Positions 2,644 to 55,406 of a stretch of DNA of 64,000 bases are shown piece after piece. The stretch is from Candidatus Pacearchaeota archaeon CG10_big_fil_rev_8_21_14_0_10_34_76 (lineage in GTDB: Archaea > Nanobdellota > Nanobdellia > Pacearchaeales > GW2011-AR1). The stretch spans positions 62,286-126,285 of the forward strand of contig PFDB01000002.1 in the NCBI GenBank assembly GCA_002763075.1, in the 5' to 3' direction. Position numbers and translations under genes: made by a program. How positions within the stretch are numbered: the first letter of the stretch is position 1; each line of letters starts with the position of its first letter. The notes under the pieces are model-generated. The model did not search any database and had not been told where the DNA came from. It saw only the letters and a list, made by a program, of their open reading frames with translations.

Positions 2644-3111
2644 TTATTGGTCTTCCTTTTCCTCTTCCTCGTTATCTTCTCTCCTTATAACTCTTATGTT
2701 GTCCATTTTTACTGTAACTGGAATAGGAACCGCAGCTCCAAGAAGTGAAACGACGACTTCTCCCTTTTGCTTATCTATACGCATTACCTTTCCTTTCTCT
2801 TTCTTGAAAAGTTCTGCTATCATTTCTACTATATCTCCTACCTGGATATTTAAGTCCTCAACTTCTGGCTCCACCATATTTTTCACCTCTTCATAATCAA
2901 CATTCTTACCTAGAATGCCCTTAACATAAGGTTGATTGAAAACTGCTTCTTCTGCTGAATCTCTGTCTTCTGCCTCGAGAATTATATACCCCCTCAGCCC
3001 GTGGGGTCTTACAATGGAGAAAACTCTTAGCTCTTTTTTTTGAGCCCTCTGGCTTATTAATTCTGCTGCTCTTTCTTCCTTGTTTGTTGTGACTTTGATA
3101 ATAAAAATCAT
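2644..3111 (-). CDS. spt5: transcription elongation factor Spt5 (NusG homolog)
   Basis: MIFIIKVTTNKEERAAE... NGN domain plus KOW (GDIVEMIAELFKKEKGKV). Start placed at Met13 of the 167-aa ORF. Sits between secE and rpl11. Confidence 0.8.
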   Translation of the reverse strand: MIFIIKVTTNKEERAAELISQRAQKKELRVFSIVRPHGLRGYIILEAEDRDSAEEAVFNQPYVKGILGKNVDYEEVKNMVEPEVEDLNIQVGDIVEMIAELFKKEKGKVMRIDKQKGEVVVSLLGAAVPIPVTVKMDNIRVIRREDNEEEEKEDQ

Positions 3112-3197
3112 TTTTCTTGCACTACTCCATGAATCAAGAATACTCAAGAAGTAGTAATTTTAAAGATTTGTCAAGGTTTTTAAATATTTCCCCTAGC

Positions 3198-3368
3198 TCA
3201 GAAAAACATCCTTACTACCACCGAGATGACAAATCCTAATAATCCCAAGACAAGAAGACCAATTGCAGAGACCTTGCTTATTGTGAAAAACTCCTGTTTG
3301 GTTGGTCTCTTTAAGATTTTCCATACCCTAAGAGATTGAAGTATGAATGATTTTAGTTTTCTATGCAT
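3198..3368 (-). CDS. secE: preprotein translocase subunit SecE/Sec61-gamma
   Basis: Manual translation MHRKLKSFILQSLRVWKILKRPTKQEFFTISKVSAIGLLVLGLLGFVISVVVRMFF: KRPTKQEF motif plus a single C-terminal TM helix. Conserved ftsZ-secE-spt5-rpl11 order. Confidence 0.65.
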   Translation of the reverse strand: MHRKLKSFILQSLRVWKILKRPTKQEFFTISKVSAIGLLVLGLLGFVISVVVRMFF

Positions 3369-3398
3369 GTGAGATAAAACATAAGCCTGTTTTTAAAA

Positions 3399-4493
3399 TT
3401 AACCTTGGTCTTGTAAAAAGCGAATTCCGAGCTCACTTTCTAATTGGTTATCTGAAAAGTCCTTATCCGAAGATGCTCCAAGAATTTGTGAGCTTTTAAC
3501 TCCAGTAACTATCAACAGTACCTTAATGGATTTCTCCATGTCTGCAGATATTTGTGCGCCAGAAATTATTTTTGCATCTGGAGATATTTTTCTTCCTAAC
3601 TCCTGCATGATTATTTTATACTCCTCCAAAGACATATCTGGCCCACCTATGATATTGACCAATGCTCCCTTTGCATCGCTAATATTTACATCCAGTAAAG
3701 GATTATTGATTGCCCTATTCACTGCTTCAATTGCTCTGCCTTGGGCTGAATCTGATTCTCCTATGCCTATCAATGAAACTCCTCCGTTTGACATAACTGT
3801 TTTTATATCTGCAAAATCGAGATTTACTAATCCAGAGGTCGTTATCAGTTCAGCTATACCCTTGACGGAGTTGGTTAGAATTTCATCTGCAACCTTAAAT
3901 GCAGTATGTAATGGAAGTTCTGGGGCTAACTCGAGAAGTTTATCATTGGGTATTACTATCAATGTGTCTGTAATTGCCTGCATCCTCTCAAGACCATATT
4001 GTGCATTCTCAATTCTCTTTTGTCCTTCAACTGTAAATGGAAGTGTTACTATCCCTATTGTTAGTGCTCCTTGTCTTTTTGCTATGTCTGCAACAACAGG
4101 TGCTGCTCCAGTCCCAGTTCCACCTCCAAGACCGCATGTAATGAATACCATGTCAGAATTGGATAATTTTTTCTTTAATTCTTGTTCCGATTCTTTTGCA
4201 GCCTCTTCACCAATTTTTGGGTTACTTCCTGCGCCTAGCCCGTGAGTTAATTCACGGCCAATCAATATTTTATGATCTGCATTAGCATAAAGAAGATCTT
4301 GTGCATCTGTATTCAATGCTATGACCTCACAGCCCTTTACACCGACTTCCTTCATTCTAGAGACTGAGTTTCCTCCTCCTCCACCGCATCCAACAACTTT
4401 TATACGAGCACTTTGTTTTTTTAGCAATGATTCTAGTTCTTGATCTATAGAATGAGAGTCAGGATAGTTTTTTTCAATATTTATATCAACCAT
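3399..4493 (-). CDS. ftsZ: cell division GTPase FtsZ
   Basis: Tubulin signature GGGTGTG(A)AP (VVGCGGGGGN...CGLGGGTGTGAAPVVADIAK); 364 aa. Confidence 0.9.
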   Translation of the reverse strand: MVDINIEKNYPDSHSIDQELESLLKKQSARIKVVGCGGGGGNSVSRMKEVGVKGCEVIALNTDAQDLLYANADHKILIGRELTHGLGAGSNPKIGEEAAKESEQELKKKLSNSDMVFITCGLGGGTGTGAAPVVADIAKRQGALTIGIVTLPFTVEGQKRIENAQYGLERMQAITDTLIVIPNDKLLELAPELPLHTAFKVADEILTNSVKGIAELITTSGLVNLDFADIKTVMSNGGVSLIGIGESDSAQGRAIEAVNRAINNPLLDVNISDAKGALVNIIGGPDMSLEEYKIIMQELGRKISPDAKIISGAQISADMEKSIKVLLIVTGVKSSQILGASSDKDFSDNQLESELGIRFLQDQG

Positions 4494-30255: not shown

Positions 30256-32955
30256 ATGAATGAAGAGAACCTGATAAATGAAAGAAAAGAGAAGGCTCTA
30301 AATGCTTTAAAGAAGAATTATAATTTAGTGGTTTATGCAATTTTAGCAATAATTTTGTTTATATCTGTGAGGATTAGAACGAGAAATCTCTCTGGATTAA
30401 GAGATGTCACCACAGGCGGATGGACTCTTGGTCCTGACTTGGATCCATTTCTGTTTTTGAGATGGGCAAAATATATTGTTGAGAATGGAAGTTTGATGGC
30501 AATAGATTCATTTAGGTACGTGCCTCTGGGATTTAGGACAAAGGGAGAACTGATATTACATCCATATATGATTGCATGGTTCCATAAGGTGGCAAGCGTT
30601 TTTGGAAGTGTGTCTGTTGAACAATCTGCCGCATTATATCCAGTTTTCTTTTTTGCGATAACAGTCATAGCGTTTTTCTTTCTCACTAGAGAAATATTCA
30701 AAGATAATTTGAACAAAATGAATTCTAATTTTGCGGCGTTGGTTGCATCATTCTTTTTATCTGTGCTCCCAGTTATTTTGCCGAGAACGATAGCTGGAAT
30801 ACCTGAAAAAGAGTCTCCTGGATTTTTCTTTCTTTTTGCGACATTCTATTTCTTTCTTCTAGCATGGAAATTTGAAAATGTTAAGATAAAATATACCTGT
30901 GCCATTTTAGCAGGAATTTTAACAGCAGGAATGGCATTAGTCTGGGGAGGATATATCTATTTGTTTGTGACTATCGGGGCTTCTGTGCTTATTGCATTTA
31001 TGTTAGGCAAGGTAGACAAAAAAAGGATTTATATGTATACTATCTGGCTAGCTTCTGCTTTGATTATCATGAACATGTTCTCATTGAGATATAATTTGTC
31101 TGGAATGATAAATTCTGCAACTACTGGAATTGTATTCTTTACACTGGCAGTGATATGGGGAGATTGGATTATTTATAAAACAAGGATAAAATATTATTTT
31201 GTTAAGGGAAAATTAAAAAATATTCCAAGACAAATAAAATCCTTAGTGGTAGTTAGCATCATAGCAATCCTATTAGCAAGCATATTTTTTGGATTTGGTT
31301 TTGTGCCTTCTAAGATAAGTAATGTAGTGGGGTTACTTGTTAAACCTTCTACAGATAGACTCGGAGTTACAGTTGCTGAGAATAGACAGCCCTATTTTTC
31401 TGAATGGGCAAGTAGTTTTGGACCAGAGTTAGGAGGATTTCCAATATTATTCTGGGTAATGTTTATTGGTTCCATATATTTATTCGGAAGTATTATCAAT
31501 GAAAAACGCAATAAACATAAGTGGATCCTAATTGGAAGTTATACTTTATTCTTGACTGCCATCATATTTAGCAGATATAAGCCAAATAGCATTTTTGATG
31601 GAGAAGGCTTTGCTAGTCTTGCATTCTATATGCTTGGGGCGTTGGTTTTCCTTGGAGCATTGATTTATTATTATCTGTTCCTTGAGAATAGAAATGAATT
31701 TGGAAAACTTAGGGGAATTAAGTTTTCGTCAATTCTCTTGTTTTCATTCTTCGCTATCAGTTTGATATCTGTAAGGGGAGCTGTAAGACTTATTATGATG
31801 CTTGTGCCTTCTGTTGCAATAATTAGCAGTTATTTTGTATTTAGCCTATGGGAAAAAAGCAACTTTGGGGGGAAAGATAAAAACATTGCTCCTCTTGTGT
31901 TTGCAGGACTGATTGCATTAACATTGATATTTGCAGGTTATTACTATTATCAGGCAAGTAATAATATAGCTCAGGGATATGCCCCTTCTTCTTATACACA
32001 ACAATGGCAGAAAGCAATGAGCTGGGTTAGAGAGAGTACTCCCGAAAATGCTGTTTTTGCACATTGGTGGGATTATGGATACTGGGTGCAATCTATTGGG
32101 GAAAGAGCGACAGTTTTAGATGGAGGAAATGCAATACCTTATTGGAATCATTTTATGGGTAGATATGTTTTGACTGGAGATGATAATACTAAAGCACTAG
32201 AGTTTTTGTTCGCCCATAATGCAACTCACTTTTTAATTGATTCAAGCGATATTGGAAAGTATACTGCATTCTCAAGTATTGGATCTGATGAACAATATGA
32301 CAGAAGGAGTTGGTTGCAGACATTCTTGATTGATGACTCTCAAACGAGTAATCTGAAGAATAGCACTCTTTTATTGTATAGGGGAGGATTTAGTCTTGAT
32401 GGAGATATAATTTATGAAGAAAATGGAAGTAAAATATTCCTCCCAGGTGTTGAGGATGCAGATATTAACCAGAACCTAAATGTTGCAGGACTTGGAGCAA
32501 TTATAATTGAAAGATCTGACAATAAAGAGATTAAGAATGTTGAAGGAATATTTGTTTATAATGGACAGCAGTATAGAATTCCAATAAGGTATGTTTTTGA
32601 TGAGAGGTTGATAGATCTTGGAAGAGGAATAGATGCTGGAATATACTTGATGCCTGCTATAAAACAGGGAGCAAGCGGATTAAATGTTCAAGAGAGTGGA
32701 GCATTGATATATTTGAGCGACAGGACAGTTCATTCACAACTTGCAAGATTATACCTATTTAATGAGAAAAATCCATCTTTTGAAATTGTAAAAGTTGAAG
32801 ATGATATAGTCGTAGAAAGTTTGAAAGCTCAAGGAATTTCTGTAGGAGATACAGTCTATTATAATGGATTTAGAGGACCTATTAAGATATGGGAAATAAA
32901 TTATCCGTCTGAAATTGAGTTTAAAGAGGAATATTTAAACAGAAGGGTTCCATAA
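30256..32955 (+). CDS. aglB: oligosaccharyltransferase AglB (STT3 homolog)
   Basis: 899 aa; polytopic N-terminal half; WWDYGYW signature (AHWWDYGYWVQSIGE); large C-terminal soluble domain. Confidence 0.85.
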   Translation: MNEENLINERKEKALNALKKNYNLVVYAILAIILFISVRIRTRNLSGLRDVTTGGWTLGPDLDPFLFLRWAKYIVENGSLMAIDSFRYVPLGFRTKGELILHPYMIAWFHKVASVFGSVSVEQSAALYPVFFFAITVIAFFFLTREIFKDNLNKMNSNFAALVASFFLSVLPVILPRTIAGIPEKESPGFFFLFATFYFFLLAWKFENVKIKYTCAILAGILTAGMALVWGGYIYLFVTIGASVLIAFMLGKVDKKRIYMYTIWLASALIIMNMFSLRYNLSGMINSATTGIVFFTLAVIWGDWIIYKTRIKYYFVKGKLKNIPRQIKSLVVVSIIAILLASIFFGFGFVPSKISNVVGLLVKPSTDRLGVTVAENRQPYFSEWASSFGPELGGFPILFWVMFIGSIYLFGSIINEKRNKHKWILIGSYTLFLTAIIFSRYKPNSIFDGEGFASLAFYMLGALVFLGALIYYYLFLENRNEFGKLRGIKFSSILLFSFFAISLISVRGAVRLIMMLVPSVAIISSYFVFSLWEKSNFGGKDKNIAPLVFAGLIALTLIFAGYYYYQASNNIAQGYAPSSYTQQWQKAMSWVRESTPENAVFAHWWDYGYWVQSIGERATVLDGGNAIPYWNHFMGRYVLTGDDNTKALEFLFAHNATHFLIDSSDIGKYTAFSSIGSDEQYDRRSWLQTFLIDDSQTSNLKNSTLLLYRGGFSLDGDIIYEENGSKIFLPGVEDADINQNLNVAGLGAIIIERSDNKEIKNVEGIFVYNGQQYRIPIRYVFDERLIDLGRGIDAGIYLMPAIKQGASGLNVQESGALIYLSDRTVHSQLARLYLFNEKNPSFEIVKVEDDIVVESLKAQGISVGDTVYYNGFRGPIKIWEINYPSEIEFKEEYLNRRVP

Positions 32956-43676: not shown

Positions 43677-43900
43677 GTTTATCTGTTAAGAAAAGTGTTT
43701 AAAAATGTATGTGTAATCCGGATTTTTCAAAATTTACATTAGAATTATGCAAAAACAATATCAGTTTGTTAGATGGTTTGAAGAAGAAATTTCTAACTTT
43801 GAAATATGGTCCTAAAAAGCTAAAAAAATAATACTAGCCATTTTAAGGAAAGTTACGTTAATACATAGAATATAACTTATGTACAAAGTCTTAAAGAACA

Positions 43901-43934
43901 GCCTTGCACATAAATGATTAGTGTTTATGTGCAA
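43901..43934. repeat. perfect inverted repeat TTGCACATAAA-N12-TTTATGTGCAA enclosing the transposase stop codon
   Basis: Read directly. The arms carry the TATGTGCAA motif that is also reiterated at 49487-49553. Confidence 0.55.
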
Positions 43935-44925
43935 TATAGTTGTCTGCACATTTTTTAAAATTAATATCTATCTTATTTAAGAAAATCTCCTGAACCAAAC
44001 AGCAGAGGTTATGACACAGACACTTCAATAAAATCTCATTATCTTGGCTTATTTGCTTCTTACAGCGAACATTATTACCAAATCGTGCCTTAATCATGGA
44101 GAACACGCTTTCTACATTAGAACGCTTATGATAATGCTGTAAAAACTCATCTTTGTGTTCATTAAAATAGCGATACATTGTTCCCCAAATCCCCAATGTA
44201 TGATTTCTTACTCTCTTTCCAGAAGTGCTTTTTTTGAAAGGGATGTAGGGAACGGCTCCGAGTTCAGAAATTAGATTTAAATTTTTCCTTGAAGAATAAC
44301 CTTTGTCTGCTGAGACTTCTTGAACATTCCAGTTAGAGAATGTCCTTTTGACAACACCTTCAAATTGTGTAGAATCATGAGTATAACCTTCGGTAACCTC
44401 AACAGATGTTATTATGTTAGTCTTAACTCCACACATTGCATGGCATTTTCTGAACTCTCTCCTTTTCGCATTCTTGTCTCCATGTTTCACGTCAAACCAC
44501 CTCACAAATTTAGAGGTTCCGAATCCTGTCGCATCAACTGCAAAATCAAGTTCAATCTGTTTCAAAGGCAATGCAGATATTTCTATAAGCTCTTTTAGAA
44601 TTAATTTTAATGATGGTTCTTCAAGATATTTCAATAAAGTATTGAAATGAAATTCTTTATGAATAAGGTCAAGTTCTTTAGCAAGTTTTAGGTCGCTATG
44701 AACTCTACGTGAAGAGAAGGTTAAATAGTTCTTCAAGGCAAGAGCATAAATCATATCTGAATAGTTTACTGGCTTCCTTCCTTTGCTATGTGGTGGTTGT
44801 TCTATTAGATTACAGATTTCCCTTAGTAATTGCATGAAAATGGTTTTCTCTTTCATCTGGCTTTCATTATACTTGCTCCAGCTAAAGTTATCGGTCCAAT
44901 CCCAGAGGTTTCTTTGTTGTTCCAT
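43918..44925 (-). CDS. DDE transposase, IS4/IS5 superfamily (DDE_Tnp_1-like)
   Basis: 335 aa; Y-R-E-K signature YHKRSNVESVFSMIKARFG; DATGF... acidic residues. Confidence 0.7.
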   Translation of the reverse strand: MEQQRNLWDWTDNFSWSKYNESQMKEKTIFMQLLREICNLIEQPPHSKGRKPVNYSDMIYALALKNYLTFSSRRVHSDLKLAKELDLIHKEFHFNTLLKYLEEPSLKLILKELIEISALPLKQIELDFAVDATGFGTSKFVRWFDVKHGDKNAKRREFRKCHAMCGVKTNIITSVEVTEGYTHDSTQFEGVVKRTFSNWNVQEVSADKGYSSRKNLNLISELGAVPYIPFKKSTSGKRVRNHTLGIWGTMYRYFNEHKDEFLQHYHKRSNVESVFSMIKARFGNNVRCKKQISQDNEILLKCLCHNLCCLVQEIFLNKIDINFKKCADNYIAHKH

Positions 44926-45011: not shown

Positions 45012-46172
45012 TTAATTCTCAAAACCAAAGTTGTTTGCTCTTTTTACAAGTTCTTGAATAGTTATTTGTTCTTCTCTCTGAACTAAGTTATCTAAAAATT
45101 GTATTAATTTGAAAACACTTAGCGGATTATACTTTCTCCTTATTGCCCCTTCCAACAATTTGAGCCCAGACTTATCAAATTTGCCAAATACTGGATTTTC
45201 CTTAAATAACTCTAGGATTAGCTTTTCCTTATAGGAAAAAATTAATGGAACTGTGTATTGTTCATAAAATTTACCATAAATGTAATCCTCATAAGTCAAG
45301 GGAGTTAGGTTAGATATTTCATTTAAAACACCATCTGTTAAATATTTTTCAAATTCTCCTCTGAGAATTTTACTTTCCTTTCTAAATAAATCTGCAACTG
45401 TCCTATTTGTTAAATTTAATATTGTTTCAGGCTTATATCCAGATTCCAACCAAGAAGTATAATCTTTTGACTTTAAGTCTTGAGGGTCAACAACTTTAAT
45501 GACTTGTTTTTTCCCACCACCTTTCCAGTTTTTTGCCCAACCTTCAGCAACCAAACTAAAACAAGGCATAAATCTACAATCTTTATTATGCTCTCCTGAA
45601 AACTTAAATGGAACTGCAATAGTAAACACTCTTTTACCAGTAAGTGCCTTAAAAGTAACTACCCTCTTGACAACTTTTGAGAATGAAGGATAGCCTCCGA
45701 ATGGAGCACCATAGAAAACTGAAAGATAATCAAAATTATGACTCAAATCTGAAAGCTCCTGTGGAGGCATCTCAGATTTGTAAGACATTTCTAATACTAT
45801 TTCTTTGCTGAAGTTCCTATTAAGCTTTAGCTCTTCACATAAGTCAACCTTAGATTTCACGTCAAAATCATTTTCTTTTTTAAAATAAGGAAAAACTATA
45901 AAGTCAGAGTTTAGCTCAATTTGTTTATCTACTACTTTCTTTAACACTTCTTCCGAAAACACAGTTGCTGAACAATCAGGATAATTCAGAACTATCATAT
46001 TTTTCCTAACAAATTCTGAAATCTCTGGAAAGCTTTGGTCTGGCTTAGCACGATTGAAGTATATTGCTCCTTCAACGTAATCAACTCCCATCTCTTCTAG
46101 GTCTTTCTTAGTGTACATTCTAGCTGGTGAATGTAACTTCTTTCCGTTGTTAATTTTTATTATCTTCTTCAT
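45012..46172 (-). CDS. hypothetical protein (386 aa), cargo of the island
   Basis: Intact ORF overlapping the upstream HTH gene. No family recognised. TGT/DpdA-like motifs were looked for and not found. Confidence 0.3.
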   Translation of the reverse strand: MKKIIKINNGKKLHSPARMYTKKDLEEMGVDYVEGAIYFNRAKPDQSFPEISEFVRKNMIVLNYPDCSATVFSEEVLKKVVDKQIELNSDFIVFPYFKKENDFDVKSKVDLCEELKLNRNFSKEIVLEMSYKSEMPPQELSDLSHNFDYLSVFYGAPFGGYPSFSKVVKRVVTFKALTGKRVFTIAVPFKFSGEHNKDCRFMPCFSLVAEGWAKNWKGGGKKQVIKVVDPQDLKSKDYTSWLESGYKPETILNLTNRTVADLFRKESKILRGEFEKYLTDGVLNEISNLTPLTYEDYIYGKFYEQYTVPLIFSYKEKLILELFKENPVFGKFDKSGLKLLEGAIRRKYNPLSVFKLIQFLDNLVQREEQITIQELVKRANNFGFEN

Positions 46173-46569
46173 TTTCTATATTTAGTACGTAGTTTTTTAT
46201 TTTCTCAAATTCAGACTCCTTAAGTTTTTTTAAGGCATGAGTATATCTCTGGATTGTAACTCTATGTACTCCTAATTTTTGAGCCACCTCTTTGTTATTA
46301 TAGCCCCTCATCATAGTTAGAAGCACAGGTCTAAGCAAGTCTATATTGAAAGCATTAGCTTTACATATTTCTTCTACCTCTTTTTCAAGTTGTAAATTCT
46401 GTATTAATTTACCCATGTTACTAAGTGTAACATTGGACTTAATAAACCTTTCTATTGCACTATCCATGAACCTTTTCCTCCATGATAATAACATAAGCCC
46501 TATGTCCTGCAAAATCTTGAGAAGTAGATATATAGGCTCCAGAAGAATTTTTACTAACCTTTGTCTCAA
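46150..46569 (-). CDS. sigma-70 region-4-like HTH DNA-binding protein
   Basis: LLRPVLLTMMRGYNNKEVAQKLGVHRVTIQRYTHALKKLKE is a bacterial-type HTH. The true start may be the internal MDSAIERF. Confidence 0.45.
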   Translation of the reverse strand: MRQRLVKILLEPIYLLLKILQDIGLMLLSWRKRFMDSAIERFIKSNVTLSNMGKLIQNLQLEKEVEEICKANAFNIDLLRPVLLTMMRGYNNKEVAQKLGVHRVTIQRYTHALKKLKESEFEKIKNYVLNIENEEDNKN

Positions 46570-46783
46570 AAATTCTAATCGCTTTGTCTTTTGAAACTTT
46601 TATCTTGGAGTTTTTCTTGATAGATATGTTCTGAGCAAGCTCAAGTTTTTGTAACTCTTTATACTTTGGTGGTCTTGACATTACTTAGGTAATACTTAAG
46701 TAACTATTTAAGCATTTCTATCAAAAAGTTTATATACAAGCAGTTATTAGATAAGTTAATGACTTATAAAAAGTAGTGATAAA

Positions 46784-47044
46784 ATGGTTCAACATTTACC
46801 TGAATGGATAATGAAGCGTTATTCTAAACTGTGGAACAAATTCAAAGATAAAGAGTTTACAAAGGTAGATGCAGAAAAAGTTCTTACAGGTGATACCTCT
46901 CTTCCAGTTTTATTATCTGAATTGAGAAAAGCTGGATGGTTGGAGATGAAGATGTCTGAAGAAGATGCAAGAAAAACAATCTATAAGTTGAAAGACCCAA
47001 CAAAAGCAATCTTAGAAGAGATAAAGGAGTTGAGCAAAAAATGA
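46784..47044 (+). CDS. small hypothetical protein (86 aa), translationally coupled to the methyltransferase
   Basis: ATGA overlap with the MTase start; helical and basic. Possible specificity or regulator subunit. Confidence 0.3.
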   Translation: MVQHLPEWIMKRYSKLWNKFKDKEFTKVDAEKVLTGDTSLPVLLSELRKAGWLEMKMSEEDARKTIYKLKDPTKAILEEIKELSKK

Positions 47045-48030
47045 AACAGAAATCGTTAAATAAAAGATTACATGAGGCAAGAGGGAATAAGAATGATGAT
47101 TTTTATACACAACTAACTGATATTGAAAAAGAGTTGAAGCACTATAAAAAACATTTTAAAAACAAAGTAGTTTTTTGTAATTGTGATGACCCTCGCGTCA
47201 GTAATTTCTTTCACTATTTCTCATATAACTTTGAACAGTTAGGTTTGAAGAAACTAATTACTACTTGTTATAAAAATCAACAAATGAATTTGTTTAGTCA
47301 AAACAAATCTGAAAAAGCGATTTACTTAGAATATACTGGCGACAAAAATAAAAATAATGTCCCAGACCCTAAAGAAATCGGAATTAAACATTTAAAGGGT
47401 GATGGAGATTTTCGTAGCAAGGAATGTATTGAGTTGCTAAAACAATCAGATATTGTTGTTACCAATCCCCCATTTTCGTTATTTAGAGAATATGTCGCAC
47501 AGTTAATAGAATATAATAAAAAATTCATAATACTTGCACAACAAAATGCAATAACTTACAAGGAGACTTTTAACTTAATAAAAGAAAATAAGATTTGGTT
47601 AGGCGTTGATAATGGCGGGACAAAATGGTTTCAGGTTCCAAACAATTATGACATAACAACAGAATCAAGAAAGAAAGTAGAGGATGGTAAAAAGTTTTTT
47701 AGTATGGGTAGTGTTGTTTGGTTCACAAACTTAGATATTGAGAAAAGACATGAAGATTTAATCCTTTACAAAACATACAAAGGGCATGAAAAAGAATATC
47801 CAAAATATGATAAATACGATATTATTAATGTTGATAAAGTAAGCGATATTCCTATTGATTATAAGGGAGTAATGGGTGTGCCTATCACTTTCTTAGATAA
47901 ACATAATCCTGAACAATTTGAAGTTCTAGGAATTGCCAATAGTGCCAGATGGATTGGTTTTGAGTGCTATACTTTGATTAAGGGCAAGAAGATATATAAT
48001 AGAATTCTTATAAAGAATAAGAGAATTTAA
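47041..48030 (+). CDS. N6-adenine DNA methyltransferase (NPPF motif; EcoRI-methylase-like family)
   Basis: IVVTNPPFSLF motif IV of N6A/N4C MTases; 329 aa. Confidence 0.6.
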   Translation: MKQKSLNKRLHEARGNKNDDFYTQLTDIEKELKHYKKHFKNKVVFCNCDDPRVSNFFHYFSYNFEQLGLKKLITTCYKNQQMNLFSQNKSEKAIYLEYTGDKNKNNVPDPKEIGIKHLKGDGDFRSKECIELLKQSDIVVTNPPFSLFREYVAQLIEYNKKFIILAQQNAITYKETFNLIKENKIWLGVDNGGTKWFQVPNNYDITTESRKKVEDGKKFFSMGSVVWFTNLDIEKRHEDLILYKTYKGHEKEYPKYDKYDIINVDKVSDIPIDYKGVMGVPITFLDKHNPEQFEVLGIANSARWIGFECYTLIKGKKIYNRILIKNKRI

Positions 48031-48054
48031 ATAAATAGTTTCTAATATTATTCT

Positions 48055-49131
48055 ATGAAGATAGAACTCAAAAAAATTACAGTTGCCGAATTATCAAAAG
48101 GTTATCAAGACAATGCAGAAGCTGGTGTAGTTGGGTTCGGTGGCAAACTTGATATTCGTCCACCATTTCAAAGAGAATTTGTTTACAAAGACAAACAGCG
48201 TGATGCTGTTATTCACACTGTTACAAAGGATTTTCCTCTTAATGTAATGTACTGGGCTGTGCGTGATGATGGAACATTTGAGATAATAGATGGACAGCAA
48301 AGAACAATCTCACTTTGCCAGTATGTCGCAGGTGACTTCTCAATTAAAGGATTGGCGTTTCACAATCTTCCAAAAGATAAAAGAGAGCAAATCCTAAAAT
48401 ATCCTTTGATGATATATTTGTGTTCAGGAAAAGATAGCGAAAAATTAGAATGGTTCAGAACAATTAATATTGCTGGAGAACAGCTTACAGACCAAGAATT
48501 ACGAAACGCCGTTTATTCTGGTTCATGGGTTTCTGATGCCAAACGTTATTTTTCTAAAAATAGCAGACCAAAAATAGGTGATGATTATTTAAGCGGTAGT
48601 GCAATCCGACAAGAGTATTTGGAAACGGCTATTGACTGGATTTCAAAGGGGAAAATAGAGGATTACATGTCAAGGCATCAACATGACCCTAATGCAAATG
48701 AACTATGGCTATACTTTCAGGCAGTTATAAATTGGGTAAAAGTAACGTTCCCCAAATATCGTAAAGAAATGAAATCTGTCCCTTGGGGAGTTTTATTTAA
48801 TGAATTTAAAGATAAAAAACTTGATTCAAAGAAGCTGGAAAAAGAGATAACTGAGTTAATGCAAGATGATGATGTTACTAAAAAATCTGGGATTTATCCT
48901 TATGTCTTAACGAGAAACGAGAGATACCTAAACATTCGTTCTTTCACAGATAATATGAAAAGAGAAGCATACGAAAGACAGAAAGGTATTTGTCCTAAAT
49001 GTAAAAAACACTTTGAGATAGAAGGAATGGAAGCAGACCATATAAAACCTTGGCATGAGGGAGGGCAAACTATAGCAAAGAACTGCCAGATGCTCTGTAA
49101 ACAAGATAATAGGCTTAAATCGGGGATATAA
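48055..49131 (+). CDS. DUF262 (ParB/Srx-like, DGQQR) + C-terminal HNH nuclease protein; GmrSD-like defense nuclease
   Basis: IIDGQQRTISL DUF262 signature. C-terminal CPKCKKHFE...EADHIKPWHEGGQTIAKNCQMLCKQDNRLK HNH motif. Confidence 0.65.
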   Translation: MKIELKKITVAELSKGYQDNAEAGVVGFGGKLDIRPPFQREFVYKDKQRDAVIHTVTKDFPLNVMYWAVRDDGTFEIIDGQQRTISLCQYVAGDFSIKGLAFHNLPKDKREQILKYPLMIYLCSGKDSEKLEWFRTINIAGEQLTDQELRNAVYSGSWVSDAKRYFSKNSRPKIGDDYLSGSAIRQEYLETAIDWISKGKIEDYMSRHQHDPNANELWLYFQAVINWVKVTFPKYRKEMKSVPWGVLFNEFKDKKLDSKKLEKEITELMQDDDVTKKSGIYPYVLTRNERYLNIRSFTDNMKREAYERQKGICPKCKKHFEIEGMEADHIKPWHEGGQTIAKNCQMLCKQDNRLKSGI

Positions 49132-49132
49132 A

Positions 49133-49465
49133 ATGCTAGAACCACCAACAGATACAACAGGCAGTCCAATAAAAGAATTTATAGAGCAAACGAAGAATCA
49201 GGCTCTTGCTGGATTAGGAGACTGGGAGTTTAAAGCACCTATTGAATTAGAACTCAATACCATTGTTTCTGGCAAGGCTGGTGGAGGGATTGATATTAAG
49301 GTTATCAATTTTGGAGCCAAAGTTGAGGCTGAACAGCAGCAAAAAATCAAGATTTCTATAGGTCCAAAAGATGAAGCAGAACAAGAAGAAAAGAAGGCAA
49401 AAATAGAAACTGCGAAATACCTTCAAAAAAGACCCCATTTAAGTGTACCTAATGTAAATAAGTAA
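49133..49465 (+). CDS. small hypothetical protein (110 aa), possibly Trypco2-like beta-rich domain
   Basis: Start 2 nt after the DUF262-HNH stop. IELELNTIVSGKAGGGIDIKVINFGAKVE...KIKISIGP resembles the trypsin-co-occurring domain 2. From memory only. Confidence 0.3.
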   Translation: MLEPPTDTTGSPIKEFIEQTKNQALAGLGDWEFKAPIELELNTIVSGKAGGGIDIKVINFGAKVEAEQQQKIKISIGPKDEAEQEEKKAKIETAKYLQKRPHLSVPNVNK

Positions 49466-49486
49466 GCTATTTTAACCTATAAATTA

Positions 49487-49553
49487 TTTATGTGCAAAAA
49501 GAGTTTGTTAATGTGCAGTATTTAGATTATGTGCAAAGCCTTAAAGAACGTAA
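49487..49553. repeat. three direct TATGTGCA(A) motifs plus a 24-bp near-copy of 43878-43900 (ttatgtGcaaagCcttaaagaac); right island boundary
   Basis: Read directly. Motif spacing is 22 and 17 nt. Confidence 0.5.
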
Positions 49554-54920: not shown

Positions 54921-55406
54921 TCAGGGGCTAGGTTCTAGAGTGTCTAAACTCCAGCCAAGTCTTTTCAGAATGAGCTGTATCTGATGCTTTACCTTTTCTA
55001 TACATGAAGAGTCTTCAACATACTTCTTGATTTTATCCAATCCTCCATGGTCACTTACCTTGTCGATATGACATCCATCGCTCCAAAATTCTCCTCCCCA
55101 TAATTCTCGCTTGATCTCGCGGAATCGCTTGAAGATCATCCACGCAATGATGCTCTTGATGATTTGCATCACTTCACTCGGCGCATAACGGGGAGCTGTG
55201 CCCACGACAATATGCAAATGATCTTCTTCCATACCTATCGCATCAAACTTGAACCAGTATCTCTCACCAATACCCTTGAGAGGCTCCTTCCCGTATTCAA
55301 CAGGAACTTTTTTCAGAAAGAGCTTCTTGCGATACTTTAAAACAAATACCCTGTGATATCGAATGCGGTAGGTACCATGACATGCTCGCTCAAGCTCAAT
55401 AGCCAT
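54921..55406 (-). CDS. tnpA: IS200/IS605-family TnpA (HUH/Y1 transposase)
   Basis: YHRVFVLKYRKK, DHLHIVV HuH motif, LWGGEFWSDG...KKYVE. GC-rich relative to flanks. No tnpB nearby. Confidence 0.7.
   Translation of the reverse strand: MAIELERACHGTYRIRYHRVFVLKYRKKLFLKKVPVEYGKEPLKGIGERYWFKFDAIGMEEDHLHIVVGTAPRYAPSEVMQIIKSIIAWMIFKRFREIKRELWGGEFWSDGCHIDKVSDHGGLDKIKKYVEDSSCIEKVKHQIQLILKRLGWSLDTLEPSP

Follow-up and report, generated by a model that had tools for sequence, protein, structure and literature searches.

Do the four tightly packed genes at positions 46784-49465 of a 64-kb stretch of DNA from Candidatus Pacearchaeota archaeon CG10_big_fil_rev_8_21_14_0_10_34_76 (contig PFDB01000002.1, positions 62,286 to 126,285; hereafter the window) form a single defense system? 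An original prediction, made from the sequence alone, had proposed that they could be a novel, modification-sensing restriction system. On the comparative evidence presented here, the four genes are three separately mobile pieces and no single new four-part defense system. The value of this result is corrective, as an apparent four-gene novel system becomes a catalogued restriction-modification (R-M) pair, composed of a methyltransferase (MTase) and a nuclease, with two unrelated mobile neighbors. The four open reading frames (ORFs) themselves had been correctly placed, all on the + strand:

46784..47044, + strand: 86-aa winged-helix (MarR-like) protein, with weak SarA/Rot, HTH_27 and MarR matches
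47041..48030, + strand: MTase, 329 aa, an N6-adenine DNA MTase of the M.EcoRI family with an NPPF motif (Pfam EcoRI_methylase, E 3.3e-131)
48055..49131, + strand: nuclease, 358 aa, combining DUF262 (ParB/Srx-like, DGQQR) with HNH (Pfam GmrSD_N, E 4.1e-19; HNH, E 1.5e-10)
49133..49465, + strand: 110-aa Trypco2/Pepco-like protein (Trypco2, PF19631, E 4.1e-4, 21.0 bits against a gathering score of 24.2 bits)

The finer details of this arrangement can also be read directly in the sequence. The 86-aa ORF overlaps the start of the MTase by ATGA at 47041-47044, the nuclease stop and the ATG of the 110-aa gene are one base apart, NPPF occupies residues 142-145 of the MTase and IIDGQQR residues 77-83 of the nuclease. 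The Pfam profiles agree with the predicted domains of both enzymes (EcoRI_methylase, PF13651; GmrSD_N, which is DUF262, PF03235; HNH, PF01844), whereas NCBIfam returned nothing informative. The Trypco2-like label of the 110-aa protein stands less firmly, as a Pfam match does exist but scores below the gathering threshold.

The quartet itself is not a conserved unit. When all window proteins were compared by tblastn with the 86 loci retrieved with the nuclease, the MTase adjoined the nuclease in 84, while the 86-aa and 110-aa proteins were found in none. Among the contigs examined, the complete quartet was seen in this population only. The original prediction, which was to fall if the quartet did not recur as a unit in other genomes, therefore fails on its own terms. 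Comparison at the DNA level by blastn gives the same picture (L numbers designate the loci compared). The interval 44911-47042 matches L136-139 at 76% and ends at the stop codon of the 86-aa gene. From 47036/47056 to 49112/49132, the window matches L007 and L001, two loci with only the pair, and the match with L092, a locus with both the pair and the 110-aa gene, extends over 47036-49400. Finally, ~49145-49417 matches L094 and L097, in which the 110-aa gene occurs alone. The locus is thus modular, and these sharp breakpoints at gene junctions point to three modules that move separately: a transposon-like backbone ending in the 86-aa gene, the pair, and the 110-aa gene. We consider it likely that the region belongs to a mosaic island of ~5.6 kb (~43.9-49.5 kb) lying in a surface-glycan cluster of this Candidatus Pacearchaeota (DPANN) host.

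The MTase-nuclease pair is conserved far beyond this host. The MTase precedes the nuclease in 87 of 90 loci; in 75 of these 87 the two genes overlap or are separated by no more than 30 nt, and 39 show a 4-nt ATGA overlap. The PADLOC models MTase_II (PDLC03297, E 1.6e-128, residues 2-328 of 329) and REase_II (PDLC03418, E 9.4e-144, residues 1-356 of 358) match the two proteins from end to end, and RefSeq plasmids carry the pair annotated as “adenine-specific methyltransferase EcoRI family protein” and “DUF262 domain-containing protein”. At the database level, the statement that the layout corresponds to no standard R-M system was therefore wrong: by its profile matches, the pair is a member of a catalogued R-M family, labelled Type II by PADLOC. 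Some of the proposed novelty survives, in that the comparative pattern described below does not resemble an ordinary Type II system and that a homologous pair on the Sulfitobacter indolifex plasmid pDSM14862_g, which is hit H1 in our own search, has been called a possibly novel R-M system (PMC9025767). A restriction function is likewise well supported for the MTase and nuclease. A literature search for a characterized Type II enzyme combining DUF262/ParB and HNH found none, and one for motif assignments in this MTase family and for R-M cassettes in DPANN archaea returned PMC9025767 as its sole find.

Close homologues of the nuclease number more than 8000; the top 120 share 76-94% identity with it, and an exhaustive search at E<=1e-30 yielded 535 clusters at 50% identity. 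In contigs sampled at one genome per species, the nucleases of the best 80 loci are 66-90% identical to that of the window. At least 15 phyla are represented, among them Micrarchaeota and Pacearchaeota as well as Bacteroidota, Ignavibacteria/Chlorobi, Acidobacteriota, Gemmatimonadota, Patescibacteria, Alpha- and Gammaproteobacteria, Campylobacterota, Actinomycetota, Cyanobacteria, Spirochaetota, Planctomycetota, Chloroflexota, Bacillota and others; homologues are also present in 121 plasmid records. Protein identities of 66-94% link DPANN archaea with Bacteroidota, Proteobacteria, Actinomycetota and many plasmids, and the pair is among the most widely transferred R-M families in this analysis.

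Several loci depart from the simple two-gene arrangement. One or two genes lie between the MTase and the nuclease in ten loci (L031, L035, L039, L045, L055, L059, L073, L076, L077 and L084), and they encode Bro-N, ORF6N/Rha, DUF6602, Fic plus helix-turn-helix (HTH), DUF6261 or OLD-like AAA_15-TOPRIM proteins. Such accessory genes are often embedded within Type I operons. One representative, P0339, combines EcoRI_methylase, GmrSD_N and HNH in a single polypeptide of 688 aa. Three contigs of ERZ26869290 (L003, L004 and L005) each carry several direct and inverted copies of the pair among IS240-type transposases, which could reflect real amplification or an assembly artefact. The contigs of L142 and L143 end within the nuclease gene.

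The catalytic motifs of the nuclease are intact. DGQQR and the HNH residues D328-H329, N343 and N352 do not vary among 79 unique nucleases and hardly vary among 117 diverse representatives, so both domains appear to be under purifying selection. The HNH domain aligns with the Gme HNH (4H9D) and McrA (6GHC); sequence searches of solved structures gave HNH matches only, and none for the MTase. The AlphaFold2 model of the nuclease, built on a shallow alignment in which all sequences are at least 76% identical, is confident only at residues ~220-358, and a Foldseek search with this model recovered only HNH domains. As the ParB-like half is poorly modelled, its fold assignment rests on the Pfam match. 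The PADLOC models for Menshen, PD-T4-2 and SspE also hit the nuclease, and were rejected because they cover only its DUF262 domain.

What would such a pair do? In the scheme that we propose, the M.EcoRI-family MTase would mark the host DNA with N6-methyladenine (m6A), and the co-translated protein, in which a ParB-like and putatively nucleoside triphosphate (NTP)-binding DUF262 domain is joined to HNH, would cut DNA that lacks this mark. Because the nuclease is coupled to the MTase, its dependence on the mark would kill the host, and the classical logic is the simplest one: we infer that methylation protects and that the nuclease restricts. The modification-sensing, Type IV role that had been proposed for the nuclease is unlikely, given this translational coupling to its own MTase. 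Ordinary methylation-protected restriction is the most likely function, and a mosaic island built around a two-gene, methylation-protected R-M core is, in our judgment, the probable explanation of the locus.

How the pair selects its target is a further question, and the divergence within the pair bears on it. The nuclease is conserved above its MTase in 78 of the 80 loci (mean identity to the window 72% versus 62%), the reverse of the usual Type II pattern. The MTase diverges mainly in two segments (residues ~186-228 and ~296-322), the first of which falls into 14 discrete types; the type of the window is common to L001, L010, L016, L019, L022, L065 and L080. The nuclease does not follow these types. 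Its identity is 0.69 within MTase types and 0.68 between them, the nearest nuclease neighbor has the same MTase type in only 27 of 74 cases, and no segment of the nuclease co-varies with MTase type (mean z 0.75, versus 2.31 for the MTase's own core). Nucleases that are 90-93% identical are paired with unrelated segments set in MTase cores that are 82-93% identical. The L092 MTase (2912-3898) is nearly identical to that of the window (47041-48030) in its N-terminal half and unrelated in the variable segments, and the adjacent nucleases are 93% identical; to judge from this alignment, the two MTases are a clear case of a recombination mosaic inside one gene.

The segment types seem to differ in specificity. 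This view comes from two comparisons: the L039 MTase agrees with true M.EcoRI in both segments (80% in the first, near identity in the second), and the Sulfitobacter type lacks GAATTC methylation. The Sulfitobacter MTase is 52% identical to M.EcoRI; GAATTC is unmethylated in PacBio data, and the sole strain-specific m6A motif is the asymmetric GGCATC, without a REBASE match (PMC9025767). Since the variable segment of the window MTase is only 38% identical to that of M.EcoRI, versus 80% for L039, specificity for GAATTC is not implied for the window enzyme. If the nuclease had a fixed site of its own, the swapping of segments would leave its sites unprotected.

It is possible, and we propose this tentatively, that the nuclease by itself lacks sequence specificity and depends for its targeting on an M.EcoRI-family MTase with exchangeable recognition segments; the pair would then be mislabelled as Type II and would represent a separate, very widespread class. 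Type I and Type III systems work in this manner, with a nuclease subunit that is constant and NTP-dependent and a methylase or specificity subunit that varies and does the targeting. By analogy, the ParB-like domain would serve as a nucleotide-dependent switch, and targeting would be left to the MTase, as it is for the Res and HsdR partners. Such a class may act on asymmetric sites such as GGCATC. The fusion P0339 and the accessory genes found between the MTase and the nuclease are side observations that fit this picture. If it is true, the family would define a mechanism new among restriction enzymes, and exchanging MTase segments would offer a compact way to program specificity.

The best surviving alternative, an ordinary Type II system in which the nuclease reads one fixed short site with Mg2+ alone and all MTase types methylate the same or a broader site, appears rather unlikely to us. 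The full-length REase_II and MTase_II matches, the simple two-gene layout and the 54% identity of the window MTase to M.EcoRI all agree with it, and nucleases that are ~70% identical normally share a specificity. It must nevertheless accommodate 14 unrelated segment types that shuffle independently of the nuclease, one of which matches M.EcoRI and another of which demonstrably occurs without GAATTC methylation. It must also accommodate a nuclease that is nearly always better conserved than its MTase, and an invariant DGQQR motif of the NTP-binding type, which would have no role in an enzyme that needs only Mg2+.

Upstream of the pair, the 86-aa gene is the last member of a divergently arranged set of genes, the others being as follows:

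43918..44925, - strand: DDE transposase, 335 aa (Pfam DDE_Tnp_1, E 4.1e-25)
45012..46172, - strand: backbone protein, 386 aa, with no recognizable domain
46150..46494, - strand: backbone HTH protein, 114 aa as called, with weak HTH and sigma-70 region 4 matches
46460..46681, - strand: backbone ORF, 73 aa, divergent from the 86-aa gene, with a faint DUF2080 match
46682..46783, no strand: divergent promoter region, from a reading of the sequence

In L136-139, the same proteins are found with 46% (transposase), 78% (386-aa), 85% (HTH), 54% (73-aa) and 80% (86-aa) identity. The 386-aa protein has no match in Pfam, PADLOC, NCBIfam or PHROGs. The called length of the HTH protein was taken from L141, and its longest ORF is 139 aa, to 46569. 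The promoter region contains two TACTTARGTAA repeats (46682-46703), which are candidate operators, a TATA-like TTTATATA at 46729-46736, and, between this box and the start of the 86-aa gene, the palindrome ATAAGT-N5-ACTTAT (46751-46767), another candidate operator. Both the TATA-like box and the palindrome recur 5' of the 86-aa homologues of L127, L131 and L140, and in imperfect form in L136, all with different cargoes.

With 128 homologues of near-constant length, nearly all of 84-86 aa and all in DPANN archaea, the 86-aa ORF is a real gene; several of these homologues have been named MarR family by the Joint Genome Institute. A DDE transposase or TnpB usually lies divergently upstream of them, and homologues of the window transposase (39-55% identity) stand beside related elements in L001, L007, L127-132 and L136-139. 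The 86-aa family is found at the head of five different R-M cargoes. An Eco57I/TaqI_C-type MTase and an N6_N4 MTase make up the cargo in L136-139; in L127-130 the 86-aa homologue is followed by an N6_N4 MTase, again with an ATGA overlap, and an MvaI/BcnI nuclease. A PD-(D/E)XK protein occurs with an MmeI-like enzyme in L131-132 and with a Type IIG enzyme in L140. The winged-helix/MarR matches, the MarR names and the promoter and palindrome kept across cargoes lead us to read the 86-aa gene as a regulator belonging to the mobile backbone. Its product probably regulates the transcription of whichever cargo follows, through the palindrome, which overlaps the expected transcription start. In this it would resemble a controller protein, and we do not read it as a specific partner of the window MTase. 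The proposed backbone module would thus consist of the DDE transposase and the 386-aa, HTH, 73-aa and 86-aa proteins, and would carry different R-M genes in other DPANN contigs. A DPANN backbone with a winged-helix regulator and interchangeable R-M cargo offers a view of how archaea with tiny genomes may acquire and exchange defense genes.

Downstream, the 110-aa ORF can also be accepted as a real gene, on account of its 59 homologues, one of which, from a metagenome-assembled genome of Candidatus Pacearchaeota, is 100% identical. The family is almost confined to DPANN archaea and shows a near-invariant Ile76-Gly77 followed by a charged tail. Trypco2 is now named Pepco. The original prediction described the 110-aa protein as beta-rich; its AlphaFold2 model, with a mean predicted local distance difference test (pLDDT) score of only 51, is too uncertain to support this description. 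The gene follows an R-M pair in three of 35 loci (L092, L093 and L113); the nuclease is 93% identical to that of the window in L092 and L093 and 69% in L113, where the 110-aa protein is 72% identical. In the other loci the gene stands alone, for example after the aspartyl-tRNA synthetase gene, after the IF-2 gene or beside a MazE-like gene. A downstream 118-aa ORF was considered as its partner and rejected, as the two never co-occur elsewhere. Judging by these neighborhoods, we regard the 110-aa gene as a passenger that occasionally accompanies the pair within one DPANN sub-lineage.

One could imagine that, in this sub-lineage, the three genes work as a trio in which the 110-aa Pepco-like protein is a second, membrane-directed effector or a modulator. 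The 110-aa gene starts 1-7 nt after the nuclease in L092, L093 and L113, one of which holds a diverged copy of the pair, and the DNA homology with L092 spans the pair and the 110-aa gene. We find this improbable: in 32 of 35 loci the gene has no R-M neighbor, and the close nuclease relatives of L001 and L007 lack it. The Trypco2 score is below threshold, and characterized Pepco proteins need an adjacent protease, of which no family was found among the called neighbors in L092-L099 or in the window.

Less probable still, to the point of being very unlikely, is a Type IV enzyme, in which the nuclease would attack foreign modified DNA and the MTase would have another purpose, such as self-marking against a different enzyme. 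The DUF262 domain is common to GmrSD and BrxU, and the missing co-variation between nuclease and MTase type would follow naturally. The near-obligate, translationally coupled linkage and the one fusion argue instead that MTase and nuclease function together. Pfam finds no DUF1524, which is the nuclease domain in GmrSD, and a Type IV role gives no reason for the diversification of MTase segments. The four-gene model of the original prediction is the least probable reading of all: in its favor, the genes are co-directional and overlap or abut, and the DUF262 nucleases GmrSD, BrxU and SspE do sense modifications (PMC12065111; PMC12707154), but the neighborhood data contradict it, with a quartet confined to one population, an 86-aa gene that heads unrelated R-M cargoes, a 110-aa gene that is mostly alone, DNA homology that breaks at each junction, and a nuclease that would kill its host if it cut the product of its own MTase.

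Returning to the mosaic island, we assigned its edges provisionally as follows:

43857..43934, no strand: provisional left edge, with the left direct-repeat copy (43857-43899) and two TTATGTGCAA copies
49482..49549, no strand: provisional right edge, with two TTATGTGCAA copies and the right direct-repeat copy (49507-49549)

The direct repeat is imperfect, 43 nt long, with copies that are 77% identical, and its right copy overlaps the start of the flanking 118-aa gene; a 16-nt inverted repeat was also found. Exact TTATGTGCAA occurs four times in the window, always at the island edges: at 43904-43913 (- strand) and 43925-43934 (+ strand) on the left, and at 49488-49497 and 49527-49536 on the right. 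It also lies 9 nt past the stop of the 110-aa gene in L094-096 (5339/1656) and 12 nt past the end of the 110-aa match in L110 (4321). Its candidacy as an end motif of the backbone was rejected, since L136-139 lack it and since, in L094-096 and L110, it comes after the 110-aa gene instead. The island interrupts a long surface-glycan/N-glycosylation cluster (window ~30256-58378) that includes STT3/AglB (30256-32955), GT4, a flippase, GT2, a C-methyltransferase, several epimerases, a DegT aminotransferase and a GDP-mannose dehydratase. On the equivalent contig L141, gene calling placed a Y1 (IS200-type) transposase at ~54921-55406.

Several points weigh against a mosaic island with a methylation-protected core, or against the details that we attach to it. 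The edges rest on short repeats and are provisional, because no island-free allele was found: all long contigs with the flanking 118-aa gene have the same island. The recurrence of the 110-aa gene after a diverged copy of the pair in L113 leaves some room for a functional link in that lineage. Instead of a natural fusion of MTase and nuclease, P0339 could be an artefact of a frameshift where the two genes overlap (ATGA). In the model of the nuclease, the ParB-like half has a pLDDT <50. That the pair restricts, that methylation blocks cutting and that NTPs are needed are in each case inferred by us. The variable segments of the MTase might not be the ones that set specificity, and the assignment of GGCATC to the Sulfitobacter MTase is an untested one in PMC9025767. 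Finally, observed/expected ratios of all 4-mer and 6-mer palindromes in the window and 88 host loci gave no signal of avoidance, GAATTC ranking 22-24 of 64 and AATT being barely depleted, and are therefore uninformative about specificity. As a separate observation, GATC falls furthest below expectation among the 4-mer palindromes of the window (observed/expected 0.51), with CTAG next (0.74), which hints at another, GATC-directed system in this host.

Comparison with known systems helps to place each of the three pieces. Like the Type II systems catalogued by PADLOC, the pair is a two-gene MTase-nuclease operon matched from end to end by the corresponding models, and it is mobile, occurring on plasmids and beside insertion sequences. 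It differs from them in the ParB/Srx-type NTP-binding domain of its nuclease, in the stronger conservation of this nuclease relative to the MTase, and in the free swapping of MTase segments. The window MTase shares NPPF and, over its full length, 54% identity with the M.EcoRI that lies beside R.EcoRI on pU90-3, and it belongs with it in the gamma class of m6A MTases. By its genes, the pair is nevertheless no EcoRI system, as the nuclease is a different one, DUF262+HNH rather than the PD-(D/E)XK fold of R.EcoRI, and the order is MTase then nuclease, whereas in EcoRI the nuclease comes first.

With GmrSD, BrxU and SspE, the window nuclease has in common an N-terminal DUF262 domain with DGQQR followed by a His-Me finger nuclease in one polypeptide. 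Unlike them, it ends in a classical zinc-binding HNH, with no DUF1524 match in Pfam, it is half the size, and its family is nearly always coupled to an MTase, implying the opposite, methylation-protected logic. The likeness to Menshen (NsnABC) is limited to the NsnA model of PADLOC, which matches residues 30-165 of the nuclease, its DUF262 part; this candidate was rejected, as neither an NsnB ATPase nor an NsnC gene was found near the pair among the window ORFs or by PADLOC. The Pepco (Trypco1/Trypco2) proteins, which are protease-activated pore-forming effectors, resemble the 110-aa protein in size, in its sub-threshold Trypco2 match and in the near-invariant Ile-Gly before the charged C-terminal tail of its family. 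They differ from it in that the loci examined have no protease gene adjacent to the 110-aa gene and in that its family is essentially restricted to DPANN archaea.

The resemblance to Type III and Type I systems would be one of logic only and is drawn by analogy: a constant, putatively nucleotide-dependent nuclease alongside an MTase with exchanged recognition segments, sometimes with accessory genes (Fic, ORF6N, Bro-N, OLD-like) between the two. According to Pfam, the pair is without the SF2 helicase motor, PD-(D/E)XK nuclease, HsdS subunit and beta-class Mod of those systems. As for the controller (C) proteins, the 86-aa protein is similarly a small protein of DNA-binding type that heads R-M operons, is translationally coupled to the next gene and has a conserved palindrome, a candidate operator, in the promoter of its own gene. 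Unlike the C proteins, it appears from weak matches to be of the winged-helix/MarR type and not an Xre-type HTH (HTH_3), and its gene precedes the MTase rather than the nuclease, moves together with a transposon backbone and is used by many cargoes that are unrelated to one another.

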